From a phage: 64,000 bases of DNA. This document shows, piece after piece, positions 25,701 through 26,152 of the stretch (positions are counted from its first letter, which is position 1; the number at the start of each line of letters is the position of its first letter). The stretch is from the sequence record PV467749.1; one strand, written 5' to 3'. The position numbers were made by a program, and so were the translations under genes. The notes below the pieces were generated by a model. That model searched no databases. It was not told the DNA's origin and worked only from the letters and a program-made list of their open reading frames with translations.

Positions 25701-25731
25701 CATTATATCAGTACTGAACTATTTAGTCAAG
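25701..25731 (-). promoter_or_regulatory. sigma-70-like promoter (TTGACT-17-TATAAT), copy of repeat
   Basis: Minus strand TTGACT AAATAGTTCAGTACTGA TATAAT; about 30-bp element repeated at 26123..26152. Confidence 0.5.
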
Positions 25732-26092
25732 AATTAATTCGCATTTTTTTGAATTCACCAATCAAGTACTTATAGAACTCATAAGTGAATAATGGTTCTT
25801 GTACAGTACTCGTTTGAAAATATTCTTCTTCAGTCTTTGGTACAGGGGAAGTACCTGAAACATAGGGATTATGATCTTCTTCTCCATAAGTATAAGATGT
25901 CATAACTTCAACACTAATTGAACTAAGATCTTTATGTAGCGAAATGTTTAACATAACAGTTCGTTGGTCAGGAGTTTCTTCATCTTCAACCCACTGTAAG
26001 TACAATTTCATTAGTTCATCCCAATTATAAAATTGGAAGTTATGTGAATCTTCAATGTTGTGTTTTATTGCTTCTTCATATTCACTAAACAT
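25727..26092 (-). CDS. FQxS-motif paralog family protein
   Basis: C-terminal TEEEYFQTSTVQE. Confidence 0.5.
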   Translation of the reverse strand: MFSEYEEAIKHNIEDSHNFQFYNWDELMKLYLQWVEDEETPDQRTVMLNISLHKDLSSISVEVMTSYTYGEEDHNPYVSGTSPVPKTEEEYFQTSTVQEPLFTYEFYKYLIGEFKKMRINS

Positions 26093-26122
26093 ATCAAGTT
26101 GCCATATAAGTTAAGATACAAA

Positions 26123-26152
26123 CATTATACAGTACTGAACTATTTAGTCAAG
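26123..26152 (-). promoter_or_regulatory. sigma-70-like promoter (TTGACT-16-TATAAT)
   Basis: Minus strand TTGACT AAATAGTTCAGTACTG TATAAT about 30 nt upstream of gene start 26092. Confidence 0.55.

Follow-up and report, generated by a model that had tools for sequence, protein, structure and literature searches.

The two direct repeats of about 30 bp that bracket a small gene in this jumbo phage are probably copies of a single sigma-70 early promoter amplified locally, and these copies would double as substrates on which homologous recombination or slippage shuffles small expression modules. The sequence analyzed, referred to here as the window, is a stretch of 64,000 nucleotides (record PV467749.1) that is 98% identical to Escherichia phage Ecwhy_1 and, judged by its sequence, is an Asteriusvirus jumbo coliphage of the 121Q/PBECO4 group. 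Almost all of its genes lie on the minus strand, and the repeat region is a minus-strand array in which small ORFans are interspersed with tRNA genes. A preceding sequence-only reading had noticed the two repeats on either side of the gene at 25727..26092, and both are indeed present: CATTATATCAGTACTGAACTATTTAGTCAAG at 25701-25731 (31 nt) and CATTATACAGTACTGAACTATTTAGTCAAG at 26123-26152 (30 nt), the right copy being the left one minus one T. They have in common a 23-nt core, CAGTACTGAACTATTTAGTCAAG, that is identical at 25709-25731 and 26130-26152 (repeat family D6). At three mismatches or fewer the window holds two matches to the repeat, compared with none in 100 dinucleotide-preserving shuffles; the pair is real and goes beyond a chance match.

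Table 1. Features of the repeat region, in window coordinates.
Feature	Coordinates	Strand	Remarks
Three tandem 54-aa paralogues, MTHEEWM... (121Q gp125-127)	26161..26647	-	161-bp repeat unit (D1); PHROG 10970
Right promoter copy (P-alpha type)	26123..26152	-	-35 TTGACT 26151-26146; 16-nt spacer; -10 TATAAT 26129-26124
Bracketed gene, 121Q gp128 homologue	25727..26092	-	121 aa; ORFan; PHROG 34619 (function not known)
Left promoter copy	25701..25731	-	-35 TTGACT 25730-25725; 17-nt spacer; extended -10 TGaTATAAT 25707-25702
RNA-A, ~190-nt structured non-coding RNA	25508..25700	-	Eight helices and an H-type pseudoknot; predicted start ~25695
RNA-B, conserved non-coding module or leader (~140 nt)	25356..25498	-	Structure weakly supported; little variation
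121Q gp130 homologue	24962..25339	-	125 aa; ORFan
Third, diverged promoter copy	24943..24971	-	TGGACA-17-TATAAT; has ATTATATCAGTACT in common (families D2-D4)

Read on the minus strand, each repeat had been described as a TTGACT and a TATAAT hexamer separated by 16 or 17 nt. The promoter scan returned the same arrangement, with TTGACT-17-TATAAT at 25730..25702 in the left copy, where a TG precedes the -10, and TTGACT-16-TATAAT at 26151..26124 in the right copy, each matching the sigma-70 consensus at 11 of 12 positions. The proposal that both act as sigma-70-like promoters agrees with this near-consensus match and with the fact that both copies share the strand of the genes and immediately precede expression units, although promoter activity itself is a prediction. 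Their position relative to the gene was likewise as first described, one copy preceding it and the other overlapping its stop: there are 31 nt from the right -10 down to the start of the gp128-homologue ORF, whose TGA stop (25727-25729) falls within the -35 hexamer of the left copy. The right copy is predicted to drive gp128 via the leader GTTTGTATCTTAAC, in which a Shine-Dalgarno sequence for gp128 is not obvious, while the third copy is the predicted promoter of tRNA-Ser(gct); the position of this diverged copy holds the exact 23-nt core in Ecwhy_1, BF17, 121Q and G17. A-tracts that may form an UP-like region lie ahead of the -35 in both copies (AATAAAAAG on the right, CAAAAAAATGCGAATTAATT on the left), although they are coding sequence in a genome that is already 65% A+T. 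The scan found no terminator-like site near any repeat copy, and folding of the 74 nt upstream of each of the three copies was no more stable than that of shuffled sequences (z of -0.6 to -0.9). Across the window, exact TTGACW-N16-18-TATAAT sites number 15 against 0.37 expected (40-fold), all 15 on the gene strand, which points to a clear reliance of this phage region on consensus promoters of the host type.

All proteins bounded by the repeat copies are ORFans. For the gp128 homologue, which the sequence-only reading had labelled an FQxS-family gene, PHROG 34619 was the sole match and no Pfam family was hit. Thirty-seven phage records carry the gene, once each, at 78-95% amino-acid identity (~81% in most). 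When relatives are compared for its presence or absence, as the sequence-only reading had recommended, the flanked gene turns out to be replaced in phage UB and kept in 37 of ~38 related records, so that excision of the gp128 cassette is rare.

To place the repeats in context we compared nine relatives (Ecwhy_1, BF17, 121Q, E9.1, PBECO4, SP27, UB, G17 and ph0011; loci L001-L009). A search for further copies found the 23-nt core one to five times per relative, inside ~2 kb, and the exact 22-mer three times in the whole 348.5-kb genome of 121Q, all in this stretch, which rules out a genome-wide portable promoter. The idea of a portable promoter cassette therefore holds in part: the core is fused to different modules, but it is portable locally only. 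BLAST with a 39-nt query gave three to nine full or partial hits in each Asteriusvirus genome and, in RaK2-type genomes, 6-11 weaker ones at 87-94% identity. Oriented as a promoter, the invariant core reads CTTGACTAAATAGTTCAGTACTG(A)TATAAT, and it is combined with at least five different downstream modules and four upstream gene ends. Core and leader are followed by gp128, by an 80-aa ORF (BF17 and ph0011) or by an unrelated 63-aa ORF (UB); in further fusions the leader runs into an ORF-less segment, or the core precedes either of two different tRNA-Ser genes. Two of the upstream gene ends, those of gp128 and gp130, have their stop codon within the -35, the gp130 TGA lying in relatives inside the -35 of the next promoter copy. 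The core is identical at 23 of 23 positions between genomes whose gp128 proteins are only ~81% identical. In JNE01 the repeat core is joined directly to RNA-B, and in EJP2 RNA-A is joined directly to tRNA-Ser; RNA genes are therefore shuffled like ORFs.

The RaK2-type phages carry a local repeat of their own, GTTGAACAAAAAGTTCAGTACTG-ATATAAT, of which 1.5 kb contain at least five copies, and a metagenomic lineage (L023) carries a third version. Conserved across Asteriusvirus, the RaK2-type phages and L023 are the -35, the -10 and, directly next to the latter, a TTCAGTACTG box, whereas the upstream half of the spacer is lineage-specific, yet uniform within each genome. Conservation of the promoter elements across lineages indicates selection on the promoter, and a spacer that is uniform per genome and differs between genera indicates concerted evolution through exchange among the copies.

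The repeats had further been suggested to mark recombination boundaries, and the alignments with relatives bear this out. Homology between the window and BF17 falls into two blocks, 24665-25731 and 25701-27300, whose overlap is exactly the 31-nt repeat; the homology block of ph0011 likewise ends at 25731 and resumes at 25701. The extra DNA at this slot, the most variable one, which adjoins the left copy, amounts to 348 bp in BF17 (between two copies), 281 bp in ph0011 and 46 bp in 121Q, E9.1, PBECO4 and SP27. Four allelic states can be distinguished: P1-ORF80-P2(degenerate)-miniORF-P3 in BF17; P1-ORF80-P2/3 in ph0011; P1/2-miniORF-P3 in 121Q, E9.1, PBECO4 and SP27; and P1/3, with one chimeric copy, in the window, Ecwhy_1 and G17. 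They can be explained by crossovers among three tandem copies. In the aligned sequences all slot junctions are seamless and lie within the repeat, with no bases gained or lost, and the left copy is a chimera whose upstream flank matches the ancestral P1 and whose downstream leader matches P3; because the junctions are seamless inside the repeat, the left copy is itself recombinant. An ORF80 remnant in the 121Q type suggests that the BF17 arrangement may be ancestral and the window state a deletion product. In phage UB, where an unrelated ORF takes the place of gp128, the breakpoints correspond to window positions 26110 and 25723, one junction lying at the end of the shared leader and the other within the left-copy spacer. 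G17 lacks RNA-A and RNA-B (an ORF-less segment) with breakpoints outside the repeats, so the repeats are not the sole route of change here. The occurrence of breakpoints at promoters could also partly reflect survivorship, as only promoter-keeping rearrangements would persist.

These junctions also bear on the alternative that a local tandem duplication of promoter-containing segments left the repeats behind as passive remnants, with breakpoints coinciding there since promoters are conserved islands amid fast-evolving ORFans. Exact copies are confined to ~1.3-2 kb, as such an origin would have it, and tandem duplication is at work next door, where a 161-bp unit is present in two to three copies. 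Nevertheless, we consider this account improbable: the chimeric junctions are seamless, with the crossover in the repeat, and occur in several independent combinations, and unrelated ORFs, tRNAs and RNA genes share the core, which duplicating one segment cannot yield. The neighboring duplication is that of the MTHEEWM paralogues upstream of the right copy, which number two or three among relatives, a variation consistent with unequal crossing-over; a fourth, diverged paralogue lies at 27981..28151.

We favor instead a mechanism in which the repeats are copies of one host sigma-70-type early promoter, locally amplified in a tRNA/small-ORF region. The right copy would initiate transcription of the ORFan gp128, and the left copy that of RNA-A, followed by RNA-B (as an RNA or leader) and gp130. 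As the copies are identical over 23-43 nt and lie at each module boundary, they would act as homology patches too, at which homologous recombination or replication slippage, within a genome or between co-infecting relatives, could delete, insert or replace a module, each new arrangement retaining a working promoter. What the sequences show directly is the anatomy of the locus, how the copies are distributed, the breakpoints in and next to them and the structure of RNA-A; that the copies act as promoters, how recombination proceeds and which way each event went are inferred. A different origin, with gp128 carried by a mobile element such as a homing-endonuclease or transposon cassette and the repeats forming either its ends or its target-site duplication, would fit the group I intron in the window and the HNH endonuclease beside a repeat copy in ph0011. 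It appears very unlikely, given that gp128 has no nuclease or transposase signature, that up to five copies in a row bound unrelated modules, and that the repeat amounts to a complete consensus promoter pointing the same way as the genes. In ph0011 (L009, 2046-2924) a NUMOD4/HNH homing endonuclease gene sits between a duplicated tRNA-Ser pair with a promoter core before each, an arrangement from which endonuclease-driven repair may be an additional spreader of the repeat.

The main rival to the recombining-promoter mechanism concerns the function of the core. AGTACT is the most over-represented hexamer of the window, with 165 sites where base composition predicts 21 and an order-2 Markov model 34, and CAGTACTG occurs at 39 sites against ~0.9 expected. 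The sites are evenly spread (18-25 per 8 kb), occur in each of the three reading frames as well as between genes, and include 25710-25715 and 26131-26136 in the repeat copies. The excess is 7-10-fold, is common to Asteriusvirus and the RaK2-type Alcyoneusvirus, and is absent in T4, Bragavirus, KP13-16 and avDM6; besides the window, it was observed at loci L001-L009, L012, L019 and L022-L025. The core might accordingly be mainly an operator, its palindromic AGTACT boxes binding a phage- or lineage-specific protein that switches the promoters, which would explain the invariant spacer and may add to the promoter function rather than replace it. In favor of such a role, TTCAGTACTGA abuts the -10 and AGTACT abuts the -35 in several copies, the -10-adjoining box is kept across lineages though the remaining spacer differs, five strong promoters of the window carry it, and the excess of both motifs in all frames and intergenic DNA, specific to these two genera, is a DNA-level signal. 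Against it, ~160 of the 165 sites lie outside promoters and are evenly spread, so the motif is not promoter-specific, and the TG of the box also gives an extended -10, possibly enough to explain its conservation. On balance we regard the operator as a possible but less probable primary role. Two other origins of the excess were ruled out: a protein motif, by its presence in all three frames and intergenic DNA, and a VSP-type repair signature, by one-mismatch neighbors that are not depleted. At the other extreme of hexamer usage, several GC-rich palindromes have no site in the window (CCGCGG, CCCGGG, CCATGG, CAGCTG, AGGCCT, AGCGCT, ACGCGT and ACCGGT; ~2-6 expected each), consistent with restriction-site avoidance. 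The literature searched contained nothing relevant on the promoter repeats, AGTACT or tRNA-cluster RNAs of these phages.

Between the left copy and gp130, 360 bp contain no credible ORF and are 97-100% conserved, above the flanking genes, with 79% identity in RaK2-type Klebsiella phages. The first ~190 nt, RNA-A, are 88-95% identical to unannotated tRNA-gene gaps of T4-like Bragavirus (phages of Proteus, Morganella and Shigella), and weaker matches occur in the tRNA arrays of the Stephanstirmvirinae Klebsiella phage KP13-16 and the Aeromonas Ishigurovirus avDM6. RNA-A is found in the tRNA arrays of five phage lineages, ORF-less and on the tRNA strand; its tRNA-cluster context is seen in PM2, vB_SdyM_006, KP13-16, avDM6, RaK2 and metagenomic loci. 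In PM2 the homology begins 3 nt past tRNA-Gly and stops 5 nt short of tRNA-Asp. In the window it begins where the left copy is predicted to start transcription, RNA-A being the predicted transcript of that copy, and in Bragavirus directly after a tRNA 3' end. The Bragavirus location directly between two tRNA genes suggests that RNA-A may be co-transcribed and processed with the tRNAs, and an identity of up to 95% between a jumbo Asteriusvirus and a T4-like Bragavirus implies probable horizontal transfer.

RNA-A is a well-supported structured RNA with strong covariation. Besides the window, it was observed at loci L010-L012, L015-L017, L020-L024 and L026. Its covariance model recovered full-length copies, with scores of 135-228 bits, in all 14 loci that contain RNA-A. 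In the model of eight helices and an H-type pseudoknot 94.2% of cells are paired (19-41% with slid partners) and both sides change in 22 of 46 pairs (5-10 in slid controls), values of pairing and covariation reached by none of 500 shuffles; these figures come from an alignment fitted to the model, which favors the model, and one in which the 5' helices of divergent lineages, misaligned by MAFFT, were kept, which counts against the structure. Rfam 15 covariance models gave no match at E<=1 over 24000-27500 and, at E<=10 over 25320-25720, noise alone (12-14 bits). None of the representatives of 185,579 bacterial and archaeal species contains the RNA-A core pattern, and strict and relaxed pattern scans found only four IMG/VR loci, five metagenome loci and no bacterial-genome locus; the family therefore looks narrow. 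No description of RNA-A was found in the literature searched.

A 69-aa ORF at 25417..25626, annotated as a CDS in some relatives, was rejected as a gene: it has no PHROG match, spans two separable RNA modules and is interrupted in RaK2 by a 45-nt promoter insert, and the covariation pattern favors RNA. The second of these modules, RNA-B, has in RaK2 a sigma-70 promoter of its own. Its end, immediately before the start of gp130, consists of a branched stem (25413-25364) and a U7 run (25362-25356); the structure of RNA-B is weakly supported because sequence variation is too small.

Small stable RNAs are a familiar part of the T4 tRNA cluster, where rnaC and rnaD encode the species 1 and 2 RNAs. 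Like these, RNA-A is an ORF-less RNA gene that lies in phage tRNA arrays on the tRNA strand, but it has no sequence similarity to them, a different fold and no tRNA-like T-arm. Homology to rnaC/rnaD was ruled out, blastn giving only chance matches of 8-16 nt and the covariance model none in the T4 tRNA region (L013). RNA-A feeds the old, unsolved question of the role of small stable RNAs in phage tRNA clusters, and is the most novel element of the locus. An evenly balanced proposition, to our minds, is that the left copy is the promoter of an undescribed, phage-restricted RNA family that moves horizontally between unrelated phage families, always within tRNA arrays, and has a dedicated tRNA-linked function (for instance, protection against host defences that target tRNAs, or control over how tRNAs are processed), the promoter repeats being the vehicle that shuffles RNA genes, tRNA genes and ORFans as interchangeable units in jumbo phages.

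Among known systems, the classical strong sigma-70 early promoters of lytic coliphages (T4 and T5) resemble the Asteriusvirus repeat in their near-consensus -35 and -10, 16-17-nt spacing, A-rich upstream tracts and position before early ORFans. They differ from it in that the entire spacer of the Asteriusvirus repeat is conserved and the palindromic TTCAGTACTG box abuts its -10, a box common to two jumbo-phage genera that echoes the genome-wide AGTACT excess. In T4-type phages, a PeSL (promoter-early stem-loop) cassette comprises an early promoter of the sigma-70 type, AT-rich DNA upstream of it and a stem-loop that acts as terminator (Arbiol et al. 2010, PMC2839356; Comeau et al. 2014, PMC4122927). 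PeSLs recur within hyperplastic regions, and ORFans are moved when they recombine with one another (PMC2839356, PMC4122927). The likeness is considerable: near-identical strong sigma-70-type early promoters are clustered in a hyperplastic region where they flank small ORFans, indel and replacement crossovers between close relatives fall inside the motif, and shuffled modules keep the promoter. The Asteriusvirus repeat, however, has no adjoining stem-loop or terminator, and the stop of the upstream gene may sit within its -35. Its copies are strictly local (3-5 in ~2 kb) instead of being distributed over many hyperplastic regions, its modules include tRNA and non-coding RNA genes besides ORFans, and the lineage that hosts it is the jumbo Asteriusvirus and not Straboviridae. 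By this comparison it is best described as PeSL-like in its working and is not to be classed as a PeSL. In related jumbo phages such as CBB, RpoD-like promoters are reported to be concentrated in early regions (PMC5259590), a study that does not describe repeat-mediated shuffling.

The promoter-mediated modular shuffling described for T4-type phages would thus extend to Rak2/121Q-type jumbo phages without the terminator half, and the shuffled units could be tRNA and non-coding RNA genes, beyond ORFans. It would offer a testable mechanism for the fast turnover of the hundreds of small unknown genes of jumbo phages, and the promoter-plus-leader unit would be a natural part usable for jumbo-phage engineering.

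Two further observations concern tRNA genes nearby. The anticodon loop of a tRNA-Met(CAT) gene at 24384-24692 (minus strand), which ARAGORN missed, is split by an ORF-less group I intron of ~230 nt (~24421-24650; Rfam RF00028, 99 bits, E=1e-25). Group I introns are unusual in phage tRNA genes. Removing it in silico leaves a 76-nt tRNA-Met that aligns colinearly with its uninterrupted counterparts in PBECO4 and BF17, and Ecwhy_1, the closest relative, has neither the intron nor the adjacent 68-aa ORF (24162..24368). The segment 26672-26750 (minus strand), also missed by ARAGORN, gives a weak tRNA-model match of 29.3 bits, equal to the gathering threshold; its position is occupied by tRNA-Leu(taa) in 121Q and by tRNA-Arg(tct) in G17, and it may be a decaying tRNA gene.
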